Assembly: GCA_021801615.1 (NCBI GenBank)
Contig: JAJYXS010000099.1
Coordinates: 1-30,610, forward strand
Source of the DNA: Actinomycetes bacterium
GTDB taxonomy: Bacteria > Actinomycetota > Acidimicrobiia > Acidimicrobiales > RAAP-2
Reading direction: 5' to 3'
DNA: 30,610 nucleotides
Part shown: piece after piece, positions 1,146 through 26,894 of the stretch
Numbering within the stretch: position 1 is the stretch's first letter
How the letters are laid out: each line of letters begins with the position of its first letter
Position numbers and translations under genes: made by a program
The notes under the pieces: generated by a model
Databases searched by the model: none
What the model was told of the DNA's origin: nothing
Seen by the model: the letters and a program-made list of their open reading frames with translations, nothing else

Positions 1146-2518
1146 TCGGCTCGCCTGGTGCCGACTACGCGCAGCTCGCCGCGCTCCACGCCCTCACGAC
1201 CCACGGCGACCCGTTGTACTCGCACGGGGTCGGCTTGTTCGTCTGGGTGGTCGTGGTGATCAAGGTGCTGGTCGCCTTCGTCGTGCTCCTGGTCTCGGTC
1301 ATGCTCATGATCTGGTTCGAGCGCAAGCTCATCTCGGACATGCAGAGCCGCATCGGGCCCAACCGCGCCGGCCCGTGGGGCCTCCTGCAGACGCTCGCGG
1401 ACGGTACGAAGCTCTTCTTCAAGGAAGACCTGCTGCCCGCACAGGCAGACCGTGTGGTCTTCCGCCTCGCCCCCTACCTGTCGCTCGTTCCCGCGCTGCT
1501 CATCTTCACGGTCATCCCGGTGGGTGGCATCGTCACCGTCGCCGGGCACACCTTCGAGCTTCAGGTCGCGGACCCGACGATCGGGATCCTCGTCGTGCTC
1601 GCGATGTCCTCGATCGCCGTCTACGGCGTCATGCTCGCAGGCTGGTCGTCGGGCTCCAAGTACCCGCTCTTGGGCTCGGTGCGGGCGTCGGCGCAGATGA
1701 TCTCCTACGAAGCCGCGCTCGGGATCACGACCGTCACCGTCGTCCTCGTGACCGGGTCGCTGTCGACGCGCGCGATCGTGGAGTCGCAGGCGCCGGCGTT
1801 CTGGGACTGGAACATCATCCGCCTCGGGATCGTCCCGTTCTTCCTCTTCCTCACCGCGATCACCGCCGAGCTGACGCGGCCCCCCTTCGACCTCACCGAG
1901 GCCGAGCAGGAGCTGGTCGGCGGGTTCCACACCGAGTACTCCTCGATCCGCTTCGCGCTCTTCTACCTCGCGGAGTTCATGAACGTGATCACGATGTCGG
2001 GGGTCGTCGTCACGCTCTTCCTCGGCGGTCCCGACGGCCCGGTACCGCACATCCCGACCTTCGACGTCTGGTTCCCGTCGGTGTGGTTCCTCGCGAAGGT
2101 CTTCGTCTTCCTCTTCGTCTACGTGTGGCTGCGTGCCGCGCTGCCGAGGCTCCGCTACGACCAGCTGATGGCATTGGGGTGGAAGTACCTGATCCCGCTC
2201 AGCCTCGGCTGGCTGCTCGCGGTCGCGGGCTTCCTCGTCGACGGCTGGTGGGGTGCGGGCGTCATCGTCGGCGCGCTCTTGGTCGCCGGCCTCCTCGTGC
2301 GCGCGTTCTCGATCGGAAGGGTGCGCGGCGAGCACCGTCCGCTCCTCGAGCCCGTCGGGGCCCGACCTCGGCGCCCCGCGCTCTCGCTCCTTGCTCCCGC
2401 CCCGATAGCGCGCGCGGGGGAACGAGCGGGGGGCGGGGAACTGCAAGGCAGAGAACTGCAGGGCAGGGACGTGCGTGGCGGGGACGCAGGGCGCGGAGAC
2501 GGCGGAGGGGCGGGCTGA
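1142..2518 (+). CDS. nuoH: NADH-quinone oxidoreductase subunit H, with C-terminal extension
   Basis: ERKLISDMQSRIGPNRAGPWGLLQTLADGTKLFFKED, GWSSGSKYPLLG, PFDLTEAEQELVGGFHTEYS, LPRLRYDQLM. Confidence 0.97.
   Translation: MIGSPGADYAQLAALHALTTHGDPLYSHGVGLFVWVVVVIKVLVAFVVLLVSVMLMIWFERKLISDMQSRIGPNRAGPWGLLQTLADGTKLFFKEDLLPAQADRVVFRLAPYLSLVPALLIFTVIPVGGIVTVAGHTFELQVADPTIGILVVLAMSSIAVYGVMLAGWSSGSKYPLLGSVRASAQMISYEAALGITTVTVVLVTGSLSTRAIVESQAPAFWDWNIIRLGIVPFFLFLTAITAELTRPPFDLTEAEQELVGGFHTEYSSIRFALFYLAEFMNVITMSGVVVTLFLGGPDGPVPHIPTFDVWFPSVWFLAKVFVFLFVYVWLRAALPRLRYDQLMALGWKYLIPLSLGWLLAVAGFLVDGWWGAGVIVGALLVAGLLVRAFSIGRVRGEHRPLLEPVGARPRRPALSLLAPAPIARAGERAGGGELQGRELQGRDVRGGDAGRGDGGGAG
2438..2512 (+). repeat. 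decaying 15-bp array in nuoH tail (ELQGR ELQGR DVRGG DAGRG)
   Basis: GAACTGCAAGGCAGA, GAACTGCAGGGCAGG, then increasingly diverged units. Confidence 0.75.
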
Positions 2519-3364
2519 ATGGGCGTGCTCTCGGACATCCGCGAGGAGCTCAAATTCTTCGGCGGCTTCAAGCTCACCTTCGAGCACCTGACGCGACCGA
2601 GGGTGACCCGCCAGTACCCCGACGAGAAGCAGCCGAAGCAGCCCCGCCTCCACGGCCGTCACGTGCTGAACCGCTACGAGGACGGCATGGAGAAGTGCAT
2701 CGGCTGCGAGCTGTGCGCGGGCGTCTGCCCTGCCGACTGCATCTACGTCCGGGGGCTCGACAACCCGCCCGACCACCCCGTCTCTCCGGGCGAGCGGTAC
2801 GGCTACGTCTACGAGATCAACTACCTGCGGTGCATCCACTGCGACCTGTGCGTCGAGGCCTGCCCGACCGAGGCGATCACCGAGTCCAAGCTGTTCGAGT
2901 TCTCCTTCACGAACCGGGCCGACGCCATCTACACGAAGCGCGAACTGCTCGTCGGCGACGACGGACGGCCGAAGAAGCTCCCGTGGGAGGACTGGCGAGA
3001 GGGCGACGACGAGCACACGTCGGGCTGGATGCGCGCGGCTGCCCCGAACGGGAGCGCCGCCTACGAGGGCGAGGTCCAGTGGTCCGGCGAGCTCGGCTAC
3101 GGCGTGCGGGCGCCGGAGGGAGGGCAGTCGGGCCACCGGGACGACGCGGCCACCGGCACCCTGGCGCTTCGCGAGGTGCTGGAGCCCCATCTCCTCGACG
3201 AGGACATCCCCTTCGAGCACCGCGGCATGCGGGGCCGGCTGTGGCGGGCCCAGCTCTCCGCTCGACGCAACCGCACGAAGATGCAGCGGGCGCTCGAGCG
3301 CGTGAAGGAGCGGCACGCCGCCAGGGTTGCCCGTCCCGAGGAGGACGAGGGGGGACGCGAATGA
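2519..3364 (+). CDS. nuoI: NADH-quinone oxidoreductase subunit I (2x[4Fe-4S]) with long C-terminal extension
   Basis: [12 protein letters not shown] and [12 protein letters not shown] ferredoxin motifs, TRQYPDEK; operon position. Confidence 0.96.
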
Positions 3365-4107
3365 ACGTCCTGCTCGGGGTGACCGTCCCCGACGCCATCA
3401 CCTTCGGCATCTGCGCGGTCGTGGTCCTGTCGGGGGCCATCGGGGTCATCGTCTCGCGCAACGCGGTGCACGCCGCCTTGTCGCTCGTCCTCACCCTGTT
3501 CGGGATCGCCGTCCTGTTCATCGAGCAGCACGCGTACTTCCTCGCCGCGGTGCAGGTCATCGTCTATGCCGGCGCGATCGTCGTGCTCTTCCTCTTCGTC
3601 ATCATGTTCCTCGGCGTCGACCGGGAAGAAGACGTCCGAGCCGAGCCGCTCAGGGGCCAGCGGCCGCTCGCGGTCGTCCTCACGGCCATCTCGCTCGCAG
3701 GGGTGCTCGCGCTCTCCGCGACGGCGAACTGGGTCACCGGCGCGCACCGCGTGGCCGGAGGGGTCAACGCCGGAGGCCACACGGACACCTTCAACTTGGG
3801 CAAGTCGATCTTCACCACCTACCTGTGGGCGTTCGAGATCACCGCCGCGCTCCTGGTCATCGCCGTGGTGGGCGCGGTCGTCCTCGCCCGCCGCCCGGCG
3901 CGCGCCGAGGACGAGGAACCTGCAGCGGACGGCCGTGCCGCTCCCCTCGCCCCGATCGAGGGCAGCCAGGGTGCTGGCGGCCCGATCGAGGGCGGTGCGA
4001 GCGCTGGCGGCCAGGGCGACGGCGACGAGGGGGACGGCGCGGCCGGCGCGGACGCTGCGAGGCGCCCGGCCGCAGGTGTCCCCGCCTCCGCGGAGGTGAG
4101 CCGATGA
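3361..4107 (+). CDS. nuoJ: NADH-quinone oxidoreductase subunit J
   Basis: ATG at 3361 overlaps the nuoI stop. [48 protein letters not shown]. Lies at the end of track ORF 985..4107. Confidence 0.95.
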
Positions 4108-17822: not shown

Positions 17823-17975
17823 CCGAGGTGCCGGCCGTGGCCGGGGACGAGCTGCGGGCCTGGGGATCCGGCCCGGGACCCCCTCGTCGGCCCGGCGGAG
17901 GAGACCTCGCGACGCTCCGGCCGGCTGCGCAGGGAGTTGGCGCCGCGGCAGCGGGGTCGGCTAGGAAATAGGCCC

Positions 17976-18572
17976 GTGAGCCAGGCCATCTCGGTGCCGC
18001 AGCCGGGCAAGCCCGCACGGATCGTGCACGACCGACCGCCGATGCTCGCGGTCGGCGTCATGATCTGGCTCGGCTCCGAGCTCATGTTCTTCAGCGGCCT
18101 GTTCGCCGCGTTCTTCACCATCAGGGCGAACGATCACCCCTGGCCGCCGGTGGGGACCCATCTCGACGTGGTGCAGGCCGGCATCTTCACGGCGATCCTG
18201 GTGTCGTCCAGCTTCACGATGCAGTACGCGGTGTTCCTCGAGGAGCGGCTCGACCGGCGCGGGGCGCGGACGTGGATCGCGGCGACGATGGTGCTCGGGC
18301 TCATGTTCCTCGGCAACCAGTTCTACGAGTGGGTCACCCAGACCACCAGGTGGAACACGAACGCCTACGGGTCGCTCTTCTACATCATGTCGGGCCTCCA
18401 CGGCCTCCACGTCTTCATCGGGCTCGTGGCCATGGTGTTCCTGCTCGGCCGGATGAAGGGCCCTGCGGGCGACCCCGGCGAGCTCGCCGTCTTCCAGGGC
18501 GTGAGCTACTACTGGCACTTCGTCGACATCGTGTGGATCGGACTGTACAGTTGCCTCTTCCTCTTGAAGTAG
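17976..18572 (+). CDS. ctaE: cytochrome c oxidase subunit III
   Basis: GTG at 17976. IWLGSELMFFSGLF, YGSLFYIMSGLHGLHV, YYWHFVDIVW; directly upstream of qcrC. Confidence 0.94.
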   Translation: MSQAISVPQPGKPARIVHDRPPMLAVGVMIWLGSELMFFSGLFAAFFTIRANDHPWPPVGTHLDVVQAGIFTAILVSSSFTMQYAVFLEERLDRRGARTWIAATMVLGLMFLGNQFYEWVTQTTRWNTNAYGSLFYIMSGLHGLHVFIGLVAMVFLLGRMKGPAGDPGELAVFQGVSYYWHFVDIVWIGLYSCLFLLK

Positions 18573-18597: not shown

Positions 18598-19686
18598 GTG
18601 ATCCGGGTGGCCCGCCGATTGGCGAGGAGCCGGTTCGCGCTGCCCGGCGCGCTGCTGCTCGCGGTCGGGTTGTGGAGCGCGCTCTCCCTCCCCTCGGGCG
18701 CCCAGGCCGCCTCGAAGTCCGGTTCGCACCGGGCGCACCATCTGCGCGGCGCGAAGGGACCCGGCACACGGACGCCGACGGGCGCACAGGCGTCGAAGCC
18801 CCCGCCGCGCACAGGCCACCACGTCCTCCCGACACCCGGTGCCACCATCTTCGTCAACACAAAGCCGCGCGTGACACCGCACGCGACAGCGTGCACCAGG
18901 GACGCCGAGCGGATCGGCTACCGATCCCCGAAGGACAGCGGCTCTCCGCAGAACAGCACACCGAGGTACCTCGTGTGCTCGCACGGCGAGGTGGTGCAGT
19001 ACGGCGACAACGCCATCGTCTACCGACTTCCACCGGCCTCCTACATCGCCGCGGGGCACAAGCTCTTCGAGGAGAACTGCTCGAGCTGCCATCTGGCGAC
19101 AGCCCAGGGGAGCGCCGCCGCGCCCTCCCTGCGCGGCGTGGGCCCTGCGACGGTCGACTTCTGGATCACCACCGGGCGCATGCCGGCGGCGACCCCGCTG
19201 CAGGTCCAGGCCACAGAGAAGCCGCCCCGCCTCACGAAACGGCAGGCCGAGGAGGTCGCCGCCTGGGTCAACTCGCTCACACCCTCGGCGCCGTACATCC
19301 CCGAGGTGAACCTGAAGGGCGCGAACCTCCGGGAGGGGGCGACACTCTTCGCGCTGAACTGCGCCGCCTGCCACACCATCACCGGTGCCGGCGACGCGCT
19401 CGCCTACGGCACCTACGCCCCGTCCCTGCACGCCGCGAGCCCCCAGCAGGTGGCCGAGGCCCTCCGCACCGGGCCCGGCAACATGCCGCGCTTCACGGGG
19501 AACCTGTCCGACGCCCAGGTGCGCGACATCGTGGCCTACGTCACCGAGAAGATCCAGCACCCCACGAACGCCGGCGGCTTCGGCCTGGGCGGCGTCGGGC
19601 CGGTGGCAGAGGGGTTCGTGGGGCTGCTCTTCGGCGTCGGGGGGCTCGTGCTGGTGGGCTTCTGGATCGGTGAGCGCGCGAAGTGA
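18598..19686 (+). CDS. qcrC: cytochrome bc1 diheme cytochrome c subunit, with N-terminal extension
   Basis: Two CxxCH motifs (CSSCH, CAACH) with distal Met (GRMP, GNMP); C-terminal GLGGVGPVAEG TM anchor; RBS GGGGGAG. Confidence 0.94.
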   Translation: MIRVARRLARSRFALPGALLLAVGLWSALSLPSGAQAASKSGSHRAHHLRGAKGPGTRTPTGAQASKPPPRTGHHVLPTPGATIFVNTKPRVTPHATACTRDAERIGYRSPKDSGSPQNSTPRYLVCSHGEVVQYGDNAIVYRLPPASYIAAGHKLFEENCSSCHLATAQGSAAAPSLRGVGPATVDFWITTGRMPAATPLQVQATEKPPRLTKRQAEEVAAWVNSLTPSAPYIPEVNLKGANLREGATLFALNCAACHTITGAGDALAYGTYAPSLHAASPQQVAEALRTGPGNMPRFTGNLSDAQVRDIVAYVTEKIQHPTNAGGFGLGGVGPVAEGFVGLLFGVGGLVLVGFWIGERAK

Positions 19687-19708: not shown

Positions 19709-20758
19709 ATGAGCGAGCCGGAGGAGCCCCGCGCCGCCGGCGACGAAGATGACTCCGTGACCGCGGGCGGCGCAGGCGGCGCGGGCGGCGGGACACGGGA
19801 CGGGCACCGCGCGGCGGTCGCGCTCCTGCCTGCGGTGCGCGCCGACGACCCTCACCTGGCCGACGCGGCGCGCCACCCGCGACGTGTGGAGGCGATCGTC
19901 GGCCTGTGCTTCCTCGTCGGCATCGCGGGGGTCGCCGCCTTCGGGGGCGCGTTCGTCGAGAACGCGGACACCCAGGTCCTCGCCGGGACGCTCTTCGTCG
20001 GGCTCTTCTTCCTCGGCTTCGGGCTCACGGCGTGGGGCAAGTACCTCATGCCCCAGGGGCCCTTCGTCGAGGAGCGCCACCCGCTCGAGTCCAGCGCACG
20101 CGATCGCCAGGCGATGGCGGCCGCGCTCGTGGAGCGCACGGGCATCGTCGTCAAGCGCCGCAAGCTCCTCGGCGGCCTCCTCGCGACGGGGCTCGGGATC
20201 TTCGGCATCGTGGCGGCCTTCCCGCTGTTGCGCTCCCTCGGTCCGAAGCCGGGGTCGACCCTGTTCAAGACGAACTGGAAGAAGGGGTCGCTCCTCGTCG
20301 ACTACTACGGCAAGCCGGTCCACCGCACAGACATGCAGGTAGGCGGCCTGCTCACGGTCTTCCCGGAGGGCAAGGAGTCGACACTGACAGCCCAGGCCGT
20401 CGACCAGGCGGTGCTCATCCGCGTCCAGTCGACCACGCTCGTCACGATGAAAGGACGCGGCGACTGGTCGCCCGACGGCTACGTCTGCTACTCGAAGGTC
20501 TGCACCCACCTCGGCTGTCCCGTCGGCCTGTACGAGCAGGAGCTCGAGCTGCTCGTCTGCCCGTGCCACCAGTCCATGTTCGACGTGCGCGACGGCGCGT
20601 TCCCGGTGTTCGGCCCCGCTCCCCGACCCCTCCCGCAGCTGCCGATCTACGTCGACTCCGAAGGGTTCCTGCGCGCCAGGGAGGGTTTCGACCAGCCGGT
20701 CGGCCCCGGCTTCTGGGAGCGCACCACAGAGGGCAACGGGAAGGCGAGCGCCACATGA
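19709..20758 (+). CDS. qcrA: cytochrome bc1 Rieske iron-sulfur subunit (actinobacterial 3-TM type)
   Basis: ATG at 19709 after GAGGAG. YSKVCTHLGCP, CPCHQS, FGPAPRPLPQL; KRRKLL twin-arginine motif before the third TM. Confidence 0.95.
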   Translation: MSEPEEPRAAGDEDDSVTAGGAGGAGGGTRDGHRAAVALLPAVRADDPHLADAARHPRRVEAIVGLCFLVGIAGVAAFGGAFVENADTQVLAGTLFVGLFFLGFGLTAWGKYLMPQGPFVEERHPLESSARDRQAMAAALVERTGIVVKRRKLLGGLLATGLGIFGIVAAFPLLRSLGPKPGSTLFKTNWKKGSLLVDYYGKPVHRTDMQVGGLLTVFPEGKESTLTAQAVDQAVLIRVQSTTLVTMKGRGDWSPDGYVCYSKVCTHLGCPVGLYEQELELLVCPCHQSMFDVRDGAFPVFGPAPRPLPQLPIYVDSEGFLRAREGFDQPVGPGFWERTTEGNGKASAT

Positions 20759-20792: not shown

Positions 20793-22364
20793 ATGGCGCT
20801 GACCGACTCCCAGCCGCGCACCCGCCGAGAGGCGAGGCGCAAGCTCGGCCCCTACGGCCGCGTCCAGCAGGCGATCAACGAGCTCGACGAGCGGGTCGGC
20901 ATCGCCAAGGGCGGGCGCTCCCTGCTCGACAAGATCTTCCCGGACCACTGGTCCTTCATGCTCGGCGAGATCGCGCTCTACTCCTTCGTCGTGCTCGTCG
21001 CGACCGGGATCTTCCTCACCTTGTACTACGTGCCCTCGAGCGCCCAGGTCGTCTACCACGGCGTCTACAAGCCGCTCGACGGCCAGCGCATGTCCGAAGC
21101 CTACGAGTCGACGATCGACATCTCCTTCGCGGTGCGCGCCGGGCTGCTCATGCGCCAGGTCCACCACTGGGCTGCGGACGTCTTCGTCGGCTCGATCGTG
21201 GTCCACATGGCCCGGATCTTCTTCACCGGCGCCTTCCGAAAGCCGCGCGAGCTGAACTGGACCATCGGGATCACGCTCCTCATCCTCGCGATCCTGAACG
21301 GCTTCATCGGCTACTCGCTCCCCGACGACCTCATCTCGGGCACCGGCATCCGGATCGCGTACTCGATCCTTCTCTCGATCCCCTTCGTCGGCACCTACCT
21401 TGCGTTCTTCCTCTTCGGGGGCGCCTATCCGGGGCACATCATCTTGGAGCGCTTCTACATCGTCCATGTGCTGATCCTGCCGCTCATCATCATCGGGCTC
21501 ATCGGCGCGCACCTCGGCCTGCTCGTCCGCCAGAAGCACACCCAGTTCCCCGGACGGGGCCGGACGGAGCACAACGTCGTCGGCTCGCCGCTCTTCCCGC
21601 AGTTCGCCGCGAAGACGACCGGCTTCATGCTCATGGTCACCGGTGTCCTCGGCGTGCTCGGCGGCTTCGCACAGATCAACCCCATCTGGCAATTCGGGCC
21701 GTACGAGCCGACCAAGATCTCCTACGCCGTCCAGCCCGACTGGTACATGGGGTTCCTCGACGGCGCATTGCGCATCATGCCCTCCTGGGAGTTCACGGCC
21801 TGGGGGCACACGATCCCCTGGGAGGTGTTCCTGCCGGCGGTCGTCTTCCCGGGGCTCATCTTCAACATCTGCCTCGCGTGGCCGATGATCGAGCGGCGCT
21901 TCACGGGCGACTACGAGATCCACAACCTTCTCGACCGCCCCCGTGACCGACCCAAGCGGACCGCGGCGGGCGCAGCGATGATCGCGCTCCTCTTCACCGT
22001 CTTCGCCGCGAGCTCCACCGACGTGCTGGCGAACTACTTCCACCTCTCGCTGAACGCGGTGCTGTGGTTCTTCAGGATCGCGGTGGTGGTGGCGCCGATC
22101 CTCGCGGGACTGGTCACCTGGAGGGTCTGCATCGAGATGCAGCGCGTGCCGGGGGCGGTGCAGCGCAAGCGGGCCATGATCGTGTCGCGGACCCCGGAGG
22201 GTGAGTACGTGGCCGTCCCGGCGGAGCCACGGCCGGGTGACGAGCAGCTCGAGCTGGAGCCGGAGCCGGTCCCGCTGCGCATCGAGCTCGAGCCCGAGCC
22301 GGTCGGCGCATCGGCGACCACCGCGCCCACCGACGAGCCGGGCGTGCGGCGCGTCACCAGGTAG
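20793..22364 (+). CDS. qcrB: cytochrome bc1 cytochrome b subunit
   Basis: FPDHWSFMLGEIALYSF, RQVHHWAA, HMARIFFTGAFRKPRELNW, GYSLPDDL, QPDWY (actinobacterial PEWY variant). Confidence 0.97.
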   Translation: MALTDSQPRTRREARRKLGPYGRVQQAINELDERVGIAKGGRSLLDKIFPDHWSFMLGEIALYSFVVLVATGIFLTLYYVPSSAQVVYHGVYKPLDGQRMSEAYESTIDISFAVRAGLLMRQVHHWAADVFVGSIVVHMARIFFTGAFRKPRELNWTIGITLLILAILNGFIGYSLPDDLISGTGIRIAYSILLSIPFVGTYLAFFLFGGAYPGHIILERFYIVHVLILPLIIIGLIGAHLGLLVRQKHTQFPGRGRTEHNVVGSPLFPQFAAKTTGFMLMVTGVLGVLGGFAQINPIWQFGPYEPTKISYAVQPDWYMGFLDGALRIMPSWEFTAWGHTIPWEVFLPAVVFPGLIFNICLAWPMIERRFTGDYEIHNLLDRPRDRPKRTAAGAAMIALLFTVFAASSTDVLANYFHLSLNAVLWFFRIAVVVAPILAGLVTWRVCIEMQRVPGAVQRKRAMIVSRTPEGEYVAVPAEPRPGDEQLELEPEPVPLRIELEPEPVGASATTAPTDEPGVRRVTR

Positions 22365-22388
22365 CCCCGGGGCCCGGGTGAAGACCAC

Positions 22389-23090
22389 GTGGCGACAGCC
22401 GACCCGCTGACCGCAGCGCTGTCGGCGTTCGCCCGGACGCTCGCCCGAGGCTACGAGATCACCGACGTCCTCTACGACCTGGCCGAGCAGGTCGTCCAGG
22501 TCCTCGGCCTGGTGAGCGCCAGCGTGTCGCTCGCCCAGGACGGCACGATGCGCCATGTGGTCTCGCTCAACGATGTCGCGAGCGAGATCGAGGTGGTCCA
22601 GGAACGGCTCCAGCAGGGCCCCTGCGTCGACGCCTTCCGGACCGAGGAGCCGGTCACCGTCAGCGATCTTCGCGGCGAGCCCGAGCGGTGGCCGGAGCTG
22701 AGGATCGCAGCCCTGGAGGCGGGGGTCGTGGCGCTTGCCGGGATCCCCTGCCATGACGGCCACCAGGCGCTCGGGGCGCTGAACCTGTACGACACCGCGG
22801 TGCATCGGTGGTCGGCGGCGGAGCTGGAGCGCGCCCAGGTGCTGGCGGACATGGCGACGGGCTATCTCGTCAACGCGTCGCGGCTCCAACAGGCGCGCCG
22901 TGTCAACGAGCAGCTCCAGCGGGCGTTGGACAATCGGGTGGTGATCGAGCAGGCCAAGGGCATTCTTGCGGCCCACGACGGCATCTCGGTCGACCGGGCC
23001 TTCGACCGGCTCCGCGCGTACGCTCGCAGCCACCGGGCCACGATCCGTGCCGTCGCCGACGCGGTGGTGAACCTCGGCCTGCGGCTGTAG
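22389..23090 (+). CDS. GAF and ANTAR domain RNA-binding regulator
   Basis: GAF segment (QGPCVDAFRT, LGALNLY), a coiled coil, then ANTAR signature ALDNRVVIEQAKGILAA...DRAFDRLRAYARSH. Starts 24 bp after qcrB. Confidence 0.9.
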   Translation: MATADPLTAALSAFARTLARGYEITDVLYDLAEQVVQVLGLVSASVSLAQDGTMRHVVSLNDVASEIEVVQERLQQGPCVDAFRTEEPVTVSDLRGEPERWPELRIAALEAGVVALAGIPCHDGHQALGALNLYDTAVHRWSAAELERAQVLADMATGYLVNASRLQQARRVNEQLQRALDNRVVIEQAKGILAAHDGISVDRAFDRLRAYARSHRATIRAVADAVVNLGLRL

Positions 23091-23124
23091 GGAGCGGCAA
23101 GGACAGACCAAGACGAGCGTGCGC

Positions 23125-23153
23125 TTGGCCGCACGAAAGGGAGCGGTTATCCT
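23125..23153 (+). promoter_or_regulatory. sigma70/SigA-type promoter candidate
   Basis: TTGGCC (23125-23130), exactly 17 bp spacer, TATCCT (23148-23153). Confidence 0.6.
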
Positions 23154-23207
23154 CTCACCGGGGCCGTCGCCCCTCCACCCCTGACCCTGGTGGACCTCCG
23201 TCGCCCT

Positions 23208-23240
23208 TGCCCTCGGCGGCACGCGTGCTCATCGACGAGG
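23208..23240 (+). promoter_or_regulatory. candidate dual-hexaloop ANTAR-target RNA overlapping an SD
   Basis: UGCC-CUCGGC-GGCA, 6-nt linker, CUC-AUCGAC-GAG. Both loops are 6 nt with G4; only the second has A1. The 3' arm GAG(G) is the SD of ATG 23248. Stems are short. Confidence 0.35.
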
Positions 23241-23247
23241 CTGGACG

Positions 23248-23361
23248 ATGGACGAAGTGTTGCCGGGAGACGGCGTTGGGGGTGGTGCTTGGCGGGGACG
23301 TGCGGGGCCGCGCGCGCTGCAGTGTGCGGGGCGGACCAGGGGGCTCCGTGGCGCCCGATGA
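23248..23361 (+). CDS. putative 37-aa upstream ORF / leader peptide
   Basis: GAGG 7 nt before ATG; MDEVLPGDGVGGGAWRGRAGPRALQCAGRTRGLRGAR*. No recognisable homology. Confidence 0.25.
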   Translation: MDEVLPGDGVGGGAWRGRAGPRALQCAGRTRGLRGAR

Positions 23362-23369
23362 GGCCGGCA

Positions 23370-23391
23370 GGCCTCCTGCGGACAGGAGGCC
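23370..23391 (+). promoter_or_regulatory. SD-sequestering hairpin
   Basis: Perfect 9-bp stem GGCCTCCTG-CGGA-CAGGAGGCC whose 3' arm contains AGGAGG (23384-23389), upstream of ATG 23402. Confidence 0.55.
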
Positions 23392-23401
23392 CGGGCGGCC
23401 C

Positions 23402-23647
23402 ATGGCCGGTTCGGGACCTTCCTTGTGGCGTCTCGACGACCGCTCACCGGTCGTGACGGGTGCGTGGGCGGACCAGATCCCGCCCGGGCCTGCCGACGAC
23501 CTGGTCCGTCAGCTCTTCGCGGTGGGCCTCGCCCTCAGCTCGGCTGAGCAGCTGGTCGAGGGCACGCCCGCGGCGGACCTGATCGGGCTGGCGGCCGCGC
23601 GGCTGGACGAGATCATCCGCGCCCTGCGACGGGCCGAGTGGGAGTAG
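23402..23647 (+). CDS. 81-aa protein resembling an isolated HisKA_3 dimerisation helix pair lacking the phospho-His
   Basis: ADDLVRQLFAVGLAL...ARLDEIIRALR resembles DevS/DosT-type LHDxVIQRLFAxGLxL...LDxxIxxIR. AGGAGG lies upstream. Confidence 0.6.
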   Translation: MAGSGPSLWRLDDRSPVVTGAWADQIPPGPADDLVRQLFAVGLALSSAEQLVEGTPAADLIGLAAARLDEIIRALRRAEWE

Positions 23648-23699
23648 AGGGTCTTCACGAAGAGCCCTGCCACGGGCCGAGTGGGAGTAGAGGGTCTTC
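23621..23699 (+). repeat. 36-bp direct duplication of a gene 3' end (period 43)
   Basis: GCCCTGC(G/C)ACGGGCCGAGTGGGAGTAGAGGGTCTTC at 23621-23656 and 23664-23699, one mismatch, 7-bp gap. Confidence 0.95.
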
Positions 23700-23710
23700 C
23701 GCTGCGTGGG

Positions 23711-24148
23711 TCAGTGGCGGCCGCCGCGGCGGCTCTCTGCGGTGAAGCCGATGACCGCCGTGAGGATCACCGAGATGCCCACGAGCGCGAGCCACACGCC
23801 GAAGACGAAGGCGAGGAGGAAGGTGAAGGCGCCGACGCCGAACACGAACGGCCAGACGCTCGAACCGGGGAAGGAGCTGACCACGCCGGCGCCGTCGGCG
23901 ATCGTCGCGTCCGAACGGTCCTCGGGACGTGTGCCGACCACCCGGTCGGTCTTCCCCCAGAAGAAGTACTTGCTGCCCCGGAACCGCCGGTGCCAGAAGT
24001 AGTAGTAGCTGCCGGGGACGAAGCCGAGCGCGGTGACGCCGACGAGCATCATGGTCCCCCCGTCCTCGTACGAGGTGAACCAGTAGCAGATCGCGATGAT
24101 GCCGAAGATCATCCCGACGCCGAGCAGGAAGGAGGACTCGACCTTCAC
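23711..24148 (-). CDS. ctaF: cytochrome c oxidase subunit 4 (actinobacterial CtaF)
   Basis: MKVES..., [41 protein letters not shown]; GTG overlaps the ctaD stop. Confidence 0.9.
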
Positions 24149-25962
24149 GGCGCTGGCAGCTCCTGGGCGATGCCTGCCGCACCGTCACCGTGGCCAGGCG
24201 GTGCCCCGCCGTTGCCGCCGTAGGGGCCATGGCCGTTCGGGCCAGGTCCTGCCCCACCGCCGTGGCCGAGGCGGATCGCGGGCGCATCCGGGTGGTTGTA
24301 GTCCCACGTCGGCCGTTCCGAGCGGATCTGGGGAAGGTGCGTGTAGTTGTGGTGAGGGGGCGGCGACGTCGTGAACCACTCGAGCGTGTGGCCGTCCCAG
24401 GGGTTGTCGCCGGCGGGGACCGGGTAGCGCCAGGACACCCAGACGTTCACCAGCATGACCACGAAGGAGATGGCGATCATGAAGGCGCCGATCGTCGACG
24501 CCACGTTCCACGACTGCCAGCCGAGCCCGGCCGGGTAGCTCGCCACGCGGCGGGGCATGCCGCGCAGCCCGAGGACGTACATCGGCATGAACGTCACCCA
24601 GAAGCCCACGAACAGCAGCCAGAAGTGGACCTTGCCGAGCCGGTCGTTCAGCATCCGTCCGAACATCTTCGGGTACCAGTAGTAGAAGCCGGCGAAGCCC
24701 GCGAACACCGCGGTGCCGAACAGCACCTGGTGGAAGTGTGCGACGACGAAATAGGTTGTGTGCACGAAGAAATCGATTGGCGGTGAGGCGAGCATCACGC
24801 CCGTGACGCCACCCATCAAGAAGGCGAAGAGGAACCCGATCGACATCAGCATGGGCGTCGTGTAGACGATCTCACCCCTCCACATCGTGCCGATCCAGTT
24901 GAAGAACTTGATGCCGGTCGGCACGGCGATGAGGAGGCTCATGAGCGAGAAGAACGGCAGGAGCACCGTGCCGGTGGTGAACATGTGGTGGGCCCACACG
25001 CCGGTCGACAGGGCGGCGATGGCCATCGTCGCGAAGACCATCCCCTTGTAGCCGAAGACCGGCTTGCGCGAGAAGACCGGGAGGATCTCGGTCGCGATGC
25101 CGAAGAAGGGGAGGGCGAGGATGTAGACCTCCGGGTGGCCGAAGAACCAGAACAGGTTCTGCCAGAGCACGGCGGAGCCGCACGCGTGCAGGTCCAGCGC
25201 GCCCGTGACCGTATGGCATCCGGTGACCGCGTAGATCTTCGTCCCGAAGTGACGGTCGCAGAACAGCATGACCAACGCGGCGGTGAGCACCGGGAACGCG
25301 ATGAGGATGAGGATGCCCGTCACCATCATGTTCCAGGTGAAGATCGGCATCCGGAACATCGTCATGCCCGGGGCGCGCAGGTAGAAGATCGTCGAGACGA
25401 GGTTCACCGCGGTGAAGATCGCGGAGAACCCGGTCAGCACCAGTGCCATGATCCACAGGTCCTGGCCCATCCCCGGGGTGTAGGTCGACGTCGACAGCGG
25501 CGCGTAGGCGACCCAGCCGAAGTCCGCGGCGCCTCCGGCGACCAGAAAGCCCATCAGCATCATGATCGAGCCGCCGAGGTAGAGCCAGTAGCTGAGCGCG
25601 TTCAGCCTCGGGAACGCCATGTCCGGGGCGCCGATCTGGAGCGGGACGATGTAGTTCGCAAGGCCGCCGAAGGCGAAGGGCCCGGCGAACAGGTACAGCA
25701 TGATGCTGCCGTGCATCGTGAACAGCTCGTTGTACTGCTGGAACGAGATGAAGGTGCCGTGAGGTGTGACGAGCTGCACCCGGATGCCCATGGCGAGCAG
25801 GCCTGCGATGTAGAAGAGCACGATCGAGGTGATCATGTAGCTGAGCCCGATCACCTTGTGGTCGGTCGTCGTGATCCACTTCATGAGGCCGCTCGGGCCG
25901 TGCTCCTCGTGGACGGGGGCGTACTCGCCGCCGAGGACCTGCGGGACGATGACGTCGGTCAC
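24145..25962 (-). CDS. ctaD: cytochrome c oxidase subunit I (A1-type)
   Basis: GTG at 25962 overlaps the ctaC stop. [60 protein letters not shown]. Confidence 0.97.
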
Positions 25963-26894
25963 GAGACTGTGCCCCCTGTCGATGCGCTGAGCGTTGCGGA
26001 ACCCCGGGAGCCTCCAAGTGCAGGGCTGTGCGTCGCCGCCGCGCTCCCGAGCTCGTGCTTGCGGGCTGTCGCGATGGGGGTGCTCGGTGTCGACGAGCGG
26101 TGGGTGCGCAGCCAGGCGGTGAACTGCGCGGGCTTCACGACCCTCACCCGGAAACGCATCAAGGAGTGGTACAGGCCGCAGAAATTCGTGCACTGGCCTC
26201 GGAAGGTGCCCAGCGCGTGGAGGTTCAAGGTGAACTTGTTCGTGACGCCGGGTTGCGCGTACCGGCTGAAGTCGAACGCCGGGACGTAGAAGCCGTGGAC
26301 GACGTCCGCGGACCGCAGGTAGATGCGGACGGTCTGGCCCTGTGGGAGGACCATCTCGGGCTCCTGGAGCTCCACGCCCATCACTGTCACGTCCTGGTGT
26401 GTGTAGTGGAAGCGCCACCCCCACTGGAAGGCGGTCACGGTCACCGACCACTTGGGGGCGGGCAGCGCGTCGACGTTGTTCTCGGTCACGTAGGTGAACC
26501 CGAACAGGACGAGCACGATGGCGATCGGGAGCGCGGTGTAGACGATCTCGAGAAAGGTGTGGTACTGGGTCTGGCGGGGGATCGCGTCCGAGCGCCGACG
26601 GTACCGCAGGGCGGACCAGGCGATGAGCGCGAAGACGACGACGAAGATCACGAGCCCGGTGATGAAGAACCCTTGCCAGAGCTTGAGGGAGTCGTGTCCC
26701 TGGCTCGTGATCGGCTTGGTCGCGCCGAACGTGGGAAGGTTGCACCCCGCGAGGAGCAGCCCGCCGGCCAGCGTCACGACCGGCGCATGGAGCCGGGAGC
26801 GGCGCGAGCCCAGCTGGCGGCGCGGCCCTCGGGCGGCCGCGGCCACGTCGGGGCCAGGTGTGGTGGAGAGGTTGCCGGACGGCGACGGATCCAC
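25959..26894 (-). CDS. ctaC: cytochrome c oxidase subunit II (CuA; probable lipoprotein)
   Basis: LLLAG-C lipobox (Cys 26742-26744), two TM helices, [27 protein letters not shown]. Start uncertain: GTG at 26894 or 26846. Confidence 0.93.

Follow-up and report, generated by a model that had tools for sequence, protein, structure and literature searches.

In the AmiC-AmiR and NasS-NasT systems, a separate sensor protein binds an ANTAR regulator and thereby controls it. Pseudo-histidine kinases such as DivL, which are of the HisKA type, keep the dimerisation and histidine phosphotransfer (DHp) hairpin without the phospho-histidine and/or the ATPase domain, presumably for docking, and in attenuation of the ermC type the unmasking of a ribosome site is coupled to a leader peptide or upstream open reading frame (uORF). 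ANTAR regulators are widespread, and to our knowledge the control of the receiver-less GAF-ANTAR and PAS-ANTAR forms that dominate in actinobacteria is largely unknown. The present analysis concerns two neighbouring genes, one for a receiver-less GAF-ANTAR regulator and one for an 81-aa hairpin protein, on contig JAJYXS010000099.1 of an Acidimicrobiales bacterium. The whole contig (30,610 nucleotides, or 30.6 kb; 72% GC) is here called the window, and it comes from a metagenome-assembled genome of 2.3 Mb that is 58% complete. The organism is known from mine drainage and sediment. Phosphorylation-based relatives of such a pair exist as well, and the accessible part of one source describes EutW-EutV and Rv3220c (PdtaS)-Rv1626 (PdtaR) as a histidine kinase with a receiver-ANTAR regulator (10.1101/660928).

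The reading we prefer, although we see it as evenly poised between right and wrong, is that the segment holding the two genes is cargo of a variable slot and that both are real genes whose products form a functional, phosphorylation-independent regulator and partner pair. The two genes are as follows.

22389-23090, plus strand: one-component GAF-ANTAR regulator, 233 aa (Pfam GAF 9e-14, ANTAR 6e-18; GC content at third codon positions, GC3, 0.91)
23402-23647, plus strand: HisKA_3-like hairpin protein, 81 aa, with Ala31 at the position of the histidine and no ATPase domain (the mini-protein)

A His-less HisKA_3 hairpin beside a GAF-ANTAR regulator

The reading frame of the mini-protein combines a GC3 of 0.88 with a GC content at second codon positions of about 0.5, and a genome-like coding signature runs from about 23440 to 23620. 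Its homologs are few. A word-indexed search of 5.8 billion proteins matched the mini-protein only to itself and yielded no longer form, a result of little evidential weight, while an exhaustive HMMER search of 1.84 billion cluster representatives gave nine matches at E up to 0.001, of which two are credible: P0003 (193 aa, 53% identity) and P0010 (94 aa, 49%). Searching again with an alignment of P0003 and P0010 added nothing. Matches P0004 to P0009 were set aside as long or repetitive proteins matched in several stretches (P0004 and P0007 upon inspection, the other four by length and number of stretches alone), and a weak match in the window's own genome (contig C68) was dismissed as antisense to a sugar-kinase-like gene. 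Also left out of the family was a frame on contig 10 of genome G200 (locus L091, 27966-28181, minus strand), which is hairpin-like with Ala at the His position but interrupted by a stop and followed by a USP-like tail; a PAS-GAF-HisKA_3 kinase is encoded 2.5 kb away, and the frame looks fused or decayed.

The affiliation of this small family is with HisKA_3 kinases. P0003 matches the HisKA_3 region of Pseudonocardiales GAF-HisKA_3-ATPase kinases, a profile of the small family matched HisKA_3 kinases in 233 of 401 genomes of the order, and one of these matches coincides with the place that the Pfam HisKA_3 model marks in this genome. When compared by hhalign with 20 HisKA_3 hairpin segments (19 taken from kinase-length frames and one from an ATPase-less partner protein on contig L070, described below), the family aligned over 61 columns with a probability of 98.4% and E 8.8e-15. 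The phospho-acceptor column of the alignment holds His in 16 kinase segments and in the L070 partner, and Ala in the window protein, P0003, P0010 and P0012. The start of kinase helix 1, ERIARDL, is replaced by a proline-rich stretch in the small proteins, and the mini-protein ends 12 residues past the conserved hairpin residue Asp69, leaving no HATPase_c domain. AlphaFold2 predicts a two-helix hairpin (helices 30-51 and 56-80) with a predicted local distance difference test score above 90 over approximately residues 31-70 and a disordered N-terminus. The preliminary description of this DNA had spoken of a His-less kinase-like mini-protein, and the homology to the HisKA_3 hairpin, the Ala in place of His and the lack of an ATPase domain uphold that wording; judged by its sequence, the mini-protein is a stand-alone, ATPase-less HisKA_3 dimerisation and phosphotransfer hairpin with Ala for His.

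Within the P0010 cluster the hairpin appears to be the conserved part, as its three members show 11 differences and none of these falls in the 41-aa hairpin core (P ~0.002). P0013 looks as if it were recombinant, joining the N-terminus of P0012 to the C-terminus of P0010, and the hairpin core is identical in P0010, P0012 and P0013.

The mini-protein shares 31-40% identity with kinase hairpins across both helices, which also suits a different and, in our judgement, distinctly unlikely explanation, namely that it forms mixed dimers with a HisKA_3 kinase and blocks it, adjacency to the GAF-ANTAR gene reflecting shared regulation only. The genome, incomplete as it is, encodes at least four HisKA_3 kinases, and kinases can be inhibited by small helical hairpins such as Sda. 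The ESM Atlas, taken as a lead only, contains sizeable clusters of actinobacterial proteins, 111-160 aa long, that have comparable features, and in one cluster 52% of the members carry HisKA_3. Kinase blocking would, however, leave unexplained why this GAF-ANTAR lineage has a dead hairpin next to it in as many as four architectures, and the loss of ERIARDL from the N-terminal half of helix 1 in favour of prolines would shorten the dimer interface.

The neighbouring regulator is assigned by Pfam. Its ANTAR domain (PF03861, residues 174-227) scores 64.9 bits against a cut-off of 27.3, its GAF domain (residues 24-156) scores 52.5 bits against 22.4, and Pfam lists these two domains alone, so that no receiver domain is found. 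A weak match to the solved ANTAR response regulator 6wsh (E 0.001) is also present. The gene carries the coding signature, its orthologs are 41-54% identical, and the domain assignment identifies the product as a one-component, putatively RNA-binding regulator. The mini-protein can neither be phosphorylated nor hydrolyse ATP, and a receiver is lacking in the ANTAR protein. Contact is therefore the only way in which the pair could act.

The pair in relatives and its respiratory surroundings

Two routes led to other loci where a GAF-ANTAR gene and a hairpin gene stand together. By the route through the hairpin family, a single metagenome contig, L070, was recovered with P0003. Its GAF-ANTAR protein has exactly 233 aa and aligns to the window protein without gaps at 50% identity, and downstream on the same strand (2543-3343) lies a PAS-HisKA_3 partner that has kept the His but has no ATPase domain. 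An additional open reading frame (ORF) at 1774-2550, between the ANTAR and PAS-hairpin genes, has no Pfam match and shows coding signal from about 2100 to 2550; its comparison with the hairpin family gave an hhalign probability of 0.1%, and the overlap of its stop with the next ATG suggests translational coupling. Positions 1-540 of the same contig, upstream of the GAF-ANTAR gene, hold a fragment of an ISL3 transposase.

The second route started from the regulator. Among 400 genomes of the order, a threshold of E up to 1e-42 defined orthologs in 15 of 401 genomes, the window's own included, and their surroundings were scanned with a hidden Markov model (HMM) of the hairpin. The closest ortholog, in G285 (54% identity), is convergent with and overlaps at its end a gene for a PAS-GGDEF protein that carries a C-terminal hairpin with Val for His. 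In G021 (51%), a PAS protein with a C-terminal hairpin, Gly for His and no ATPase domain is encoded directly upstream on the same strand. The ortholog in G244 (50%) sits at a contig end with its surroundings cut off. The three nearest relatives with readable surroundings (50-54% identity) thus each stand beside an ATPase-less HisKA_3-like hairpin protein. No hairpin neighbour was detected within 5 kb on either side of 14 orthologs at 41-49% identity or within 1.5 kb of five additional ones drawn from 400 genomes of the class, and the controls, 29 ctaF loci and 7 other loci with a total of 116 kb, were likewise free of hairpin matches. Hairpins occur in the background about once per 300 kb, and at that rate chance is an improbable source of two directly adjacent ones in loci that were retrieved independently and belong to different families. 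The discovery of L070 from the opposite direction points the same way as the neighbourhoods in G285 and G021.

The preliminary description had placed the GAF-ANTAR gene and the mini-protein gene in one cassette, and the synteny search supports their belonging together, with a conserved neighbourhood in three other loci. The GAF-ANTAR protein and the hairpin protein apparently constitute a conserved pair as far as gene neighbourhoods can tell. Residues specific to the hairpin-associated GAF-ANTAR proteins lie partly in the helix that links GAF and ANTAR (162, 167, 172 and 178), which we regard as a lead only. Complex prediction for the GAF-ANTAR protein and residues 21-81 of the mini-protein gave no answer (score 0.00 in two runs, controls not folded) and is evidence neither way.

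Genomes of the same genus contain only GAF-ANTAR paralogs of 29-36% identity, often as tandem pairs; in at least 11 of the 17 paralog loci (the L006-L018 set, tblastn) the two copies are 100-200 nt apart on one strand. The 17 loci contain one strong hairpin match, a PAS-HisKA_3 protein in G004 (L019, about 2350-3447), which is encoded divergently from the paralogous GAF-ANTAR gene and has kept its His, while the Asn of the HATPase N-box is changed to Ala. A second match, in L010, was set aside as weak (13.7 bits).

The genes that surround the pair in the window were ordered by Pfam and by GC content at codon positions. Those on either side, together with a repeat at the right edge of the segment, are as follows.

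17937-18572, plus strand: ctaE (Pfam), first gene of ctaE-qcrCAB
18598-19686, plus strand: qcrC (Pfam)
ending at 20758, plus strand: qcrA (Pfam)
20793-22364, plus strand: qcrB (cytochrome b), last gene of ctaE-qcrCAB (Pfam Cytochrom_B_N_2, 2e-63)
23629-23656 and 23672-23699: exact 28-nt direct repeat, located at the right-hand border of the insert and copying the last codons and the stop of the mini ORF
23711-24148, minus strand, convergent: ctaF (cytochrome oxidase subunit IV; Pfam Cyt_c_ox_IV, 6e-23)

Upstream (5') of ctaE, the window contains nuo genes, hemE and a gene for a UvrD-like helicase. On the minus strand ctaF is followed by ctaD and then ctaC, COX1 and ctaC being confirmed by Pfam. 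The longest ORF for ctaD has 866 aa (24145-26745, minus strand), of which the COX1 domain covers residues 299-756, and translation probably begins well downstream of the first start codon in frame. The respiratory supercluster of convergent qcr and cta operons that had been described is real, with domains and order confirmed by Pfam, and all the sequence strings named in that description are found in their places.

The GAF-ANTAR gene begins with a GTG at 22389, 24 nt after the qcrB stop at 22364, as had been noticed. A scan of 22300-23800 found no terminator-like site, and hence none between qcrB and the GAF-ANTAR gene. Because of the short gap and the lack of such a site, the regulator gene is probably co-transcribed with qcr by read-through from qcrB.

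A link between the pair and respiration does not follow from this location. Homology to sister genomes (blastn) ends at 22365-22380, at the qcrB stop, and resumes at 23707-23711, at the ctaF stop. The convergent qcrB/ctaF layout is kept across the order and the space in between is variable: qcrB lies no more than 1.5 kb from the end of ctaF at 15 of the 29 loci from relatives, where the gap measures 34 to 1294 nt. The content of this slot was compared between window positions 22365-23710 and 14 loci of the same genus (L024-L037). Short empty slots occur in G016 (176 nt), G012 (270 nt) and G006, an unpublished genome (485 nt), a value on which no other statement here depends. Elsewhere the slot holds an alpha/beta hydrolase (G010, G011), a methyltransferase (G013), MFS transporters (G002, G003, G008) or a PEP-utiliser-like protein (G004). 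The slot of about 1.28 kb in G005 gave no Pfam match; it was the sole gap of its kind to be checked, similar ones being present in G001 and G015. GAF-ANTAR orthologs in other genomes are not found beside qcr or cta. We read the 1.3-kb segment as cargo specific to this lineage, sitting in a variable slot that separates the convergent operons ctaE-qcrCAB and ctaCDF. The preliminary description had tied the mini-protein and its regulator to respiratory expression, and this part of it is not sustained, because the same slot in sister species holds unrelated cargo (hydrolase, methyltransferase or MFS transporter) or nothing; the siting among respiratory genes looks like an accident of the variable slot.

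The right edge of the segment may record its history. In four public DNA runs from four studies the stretch is identical up to about 23658, and up to that point these runs offer no natural variants for covariation or for the ratio of nonsynonymous to synonymous substitution rates (dN/dS). At the 28-nt repeat the public contigs break into pieces of 53-72 nt, and the copy in one run differs four times at 23694-23705. Either a polymorphic duplication or a scar left by insertion at this edge could account for the repeat. Tandem Repeats Finder reported nothing for this repeat, which has fewer than two periods.

The leader and the stem over the ribosome site

Between the GAF-ANTAR stop and the ATG of the mini ORF at 23402 lies a leader of 311 nt. 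The elements recognised in it or reaching into it are listed here.

23125-23130 and 23148-23153, plus strand: promoter-like TTGGCC-N17-TATCCT (8 of 12 consensus bases, A2 and T6 included)
23208-23221 (4-bp stem, loop CUCGGC) and 23228-23239 (CUC-AUCGAC-GAG, 3-bp stem), plus strand: candidate dual hexaloop with a 6-nt linker
23248 (ATG) to 23361 (TGA), plus strand: uORF of 37 codons (GC3 0.70, no homolog)
23341-23419, plus strand: extended stem-loop, consisting of the core hairpin and an outer stem between the sequences around the AUG and around the uORF stop
23370-23391, plus strand: core hairpin, a perfect 9-bp stem with a CGGA loop (-17.5 kcal/mol), starting 8 nt past the uORF stop

The 3' arm of the core hairpin, CAGGAGGCC, includes AGGAGG at 23384-23389, a Shine-Dalgarno (SD) sequence 12 nt before the ATG at 23402. 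The local fold of 23340-23420 (81 nt) reaches -49.6 kcal/mol, with z -2.21 and 4 of 200 shuffled sequences folding as well. Perfect hairpins of at least 9 bp number seven distinct ones in the window, compared with 3.85 +/- 2.5 in 100 shuffles. A perfect hairpin that hides AGGAGG, as originally pointed out, is therefore present, and the extended structure buries the AUG as well. Since both the SD and the AUG are buried, synthesis of the mini-protein is probably low until the stem is opened, by whatever means, and the stem probably gates translation of the mini gene, to judge from the predicted fold.

The promoter claimed in the preliminary description, TTGGCC-N17-TATCCT, is where it was said to be. 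It stays below the 9-of-12 threshold of a promoter scan. The 30.6-kb window has four sites of its quality (8 of 12 with A2 and T6) on the plus strand and one on the minus strand. The expectation per leader is accordingly about 0.04, and the promoter-like site is in this sense rarer than chance. From this site the mini gene would be transcribed by its own promoter with a leader of about 240 nt.

Taken together, our preferred reading envisages a GAF-ANTAR regulator made from the qcrB read-through transcript and a mini-protein whose synthesis would depend on opening of the stem-loop and which most likely acts by binding instead of phosphorylation. The preferred target would be the GAF-ANTAR dimer and the alternative a HisKA_3 kinase.

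The preliminary description went further and assembled the leader into a relay, in which the GAF domain senses a ligand that controls the binding of ANTAR to the dual hexaloop, this binding governs translation of the uORF, uORF translation melts the hairpin, and the mini-protein modulates two-component signalling tied to respiration. All the elements stand in the right order, the two genes are a conserved pair, and the uORF stop (23359-23361) lies inside the outer stem of the SD hairpin, where a terminating ribosome would open that hairpin. The AUCGAC loop has both A1 and G4, and the second hexaloop overlaps the GAGG of the uORF, 7 nt before its ATG. In mycobacteria and other actinobacteria, ANTAR-target RNAs over ribosome sites repress translation, as the accessible parts of two sources report (10.1101/660928; PMC8164766). 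We nevertheless consider the relay highly improbable, for reasons that concern its first two RNA elements in particular.

By the definition in PMC8164766, an ANTAR-target RNA has a pair of stems, each 3 bp or longer, whose loops are six bases long with A in position 1 and G in position 4, and which are joined by a linker of 2-25 nt. The candidate agrees with the stems, loop size and linker but fails to show A1 and G4 in both loops, as CUCGGC has G4 only, giving 3 of 4 consensus bases, and its second stem is only 3 bp long. Dual hexaloops of this 3-of-4 quality number 95 and 126 on the two strands of the window, a density that predicts about one per leader length, and the candidate is thus at chance level. 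The plus strand of the window has none of full 4-of-4 quality. Of the six full-consensus dual hexaloops in the window, three are antisense to the GAF-ANTAR gene (22763-23028, minus strand), an odd concentration that is probably chance in coding DNA. The stem-loops described over an SD are there and do cover GAGG; their consensus and frequency do not set them apart. The same holds for the 37-codon uORF ending 8 nt before the hairpin, which is present as described but at chance level: 26% of 1000 shuffled leaders contain an ATG ORF of at least 37 codons (71% with any start codon), and its GC3 of 0.70 equals the background, compared with 0.88 in the mini ORF and 0.89-0.98 in neighbouring genes.

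The leader as a whole folds like its shuffled versions (z -0.25, 44 of 100 as good), shows no coding periodicity over its 311 nt, has no other copy in the assembly, and gave nothing relevant in Rfam at E up to 10. No comparable hexaloop motif is present in the 930 nt before the L070 partner gene or the 300 nt before that of G021, and neither the leader nor the uORF has homology in L070. Conservation in relatives, which the relay calls for, fails to appear: none of them conserves the leader, and there is no leader homologue for a covariation test. Because the partner genes in G021 and G285 are upstream of or convergent to the ANTAR gene, no leader logic is shared, and the respiratory context of the relay is not conserved either. 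With the exception of the SD-burying stem, the relay is not a safe basis for experiments.

Several observations also weigh against the functional pair that we favour. On the side of the mini-protein, Pfam returned nothing, the HisKA_3 model (PF07730) being silent at E up to 10; a sequence search of the PDB retrieved only designed coiled coils; Foldseek gave nothing significant, the two-helix fold being too generic; and the hairpin family is tiny, with three clusters. On the side of the pairing, the case stands on three loci besides the window, with a different gene order in each. The four hairpin-associated GAF-ANTAR proteins do not form a supported clade in the tree but an unresolved grade, which sits outside a 12-member group without hairpin neighbours (support 87/89) and also includes G150, without a hairpin neighbour, and the contig-cut G244. 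As for expression, none of the 12 public runs listed with the stretch is on record as RNA, and a stem of -17.5 kcal/mol over the SD could equally mean that the ORF is barely translated. Finally, P0011 (99 aa as called), which is 96% identical to the window protein, carries M1I, L34P in helix 1 and E81G. These changes fit either relaxed constraint or a different start. P0011 starts at the equivalent of GTG 23348, which is a possible alternative in-frame start of the mini ORF, and with that start the stem would fall inside the coding region.

Another explanation is that the mini ORF is a decaying remnant of a PAS-HisKA_3 partner gene that yields little or no protein, the stem serving as a U-less terminator or as a 3'-end stabiliser of the qcr/GAF-ANTAR transcript. 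Truncation is plausible, since the genes at this position in relatives encode longer PAS-hairpin proteins. In P0011 the ATG is gone and a helix-breaking proline has appeared, the SD and AUG of the mini ORF lie in a very stable stem, the leader lacks coding signal, and the exact 28-nt duplication over the stop codon is a sign of recent rearrangement. We still think decay unlikely. The high GC3 and low GC2 of the mini ORF are those of working genes, its sequence is identical in the four runs from different studies, and the hairpin core is conserved in the P0010 cluster. P0003 and P0010 are separate short proteins at 45-53% identity, and because they share the change from His to Ala and an N-terminal motif, a short His-less protein seems to have been maintained across lineages. 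The role proposed for the stem meets difficulties of its own. No run of U follows it (it continues with CGGGCGGCCC), so that it does not qualify as an intrinsic terminator, and a promoter-like site between the GAF-ANTAR stop and the stem would be odd if the stem ended the upstream transcript.

In relatives the dead hairpin is the C-terminal module of PAS or PAS-GGDEF sensors encoded beside the orthologous GAF-ANTAR gene, and the window form is a sensor-less minimal version. It is possible, and we suggest it only tentatively, that a GAF-ANTAR lineage has a dedicated partner in the dead HisKA_3 hairpin, that PAS or PAS-GGDEF sensors or the bare 81-aa hairpin control its RNA-binding output by contact, and that the bare hairpin is made only when the stem opens.

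Comparison with known systems

Our survey of the literature turned up no account of a dead, kinase-less HisKA_3 hairpin that is paired with a receiver-less GAF-ANTAR protein. The known systems resemble the locus in part. Attenuation of the ermC type likewise has a short ORF ending in or just before a stem that hides the SD of the next gene; the uORF considered here is at chance level and not conserved. The actinobacterial ANTAR-target RNAs over ribosome sites, as the accessible parts of the sources present them, share with the leader a high-GC actinobacterial host, tandem hexaloops and a 6-nt linker over GAGG, whereas the leader has 3 of 4 A1/G4 bases, a 3-bp second stem, chance frequency and no conservation, and the site covered is that of a doubtful uORF and not of a gene (PMC8164766; 10.1101/660928).

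At the protein level, EutW-EutV and PdtaS-PdtaR also pair a kinase-type transmitter module with an ANTAR output protein. Their kinases, in the portion of the source that is accessible, have the His and an ATPase domain and phosphorylate an Asp of the receiver. The systems differ in that the regulator here has no receiver, the ATPase domain is present in 0 of 4 partners, and the His is lacking in 3 of the 4.

Pseudo-histidine kinases of the DivL kind usually have Asp or Tyr for His and travel with receiver proteins, whereas the hairpin here is of the HisKA_3 type with Ala, Gly or Val for His, it stands beside a receiver-less GAF-ANTAR protein, and its window form has no sensor domain. Should the pair prove functional, it would add a new case to those in which a kinase transmitter serves docking only.

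AmiC-AmiR and NasS-NasT resemble the locus in having the gene of an ANTAR regulator beside that of a non-phosphorylating partner, with control by contact, which at this locus is a prediction. Their partners are ligand sensors resembling periplasmic binding proteins, and their regulators possess a pseudo-receiver or receiver, whereas the regulator described here has a GAF sensor of its own and its partner is a dead HisKA_3 hairpin. If the preferred reading is true, the two genes would encode a phosphorylation-free 'two-component' pair, and the dead-kinase-hairpin partner would represent a new way of wiring sensor domains to RNA-binding output.

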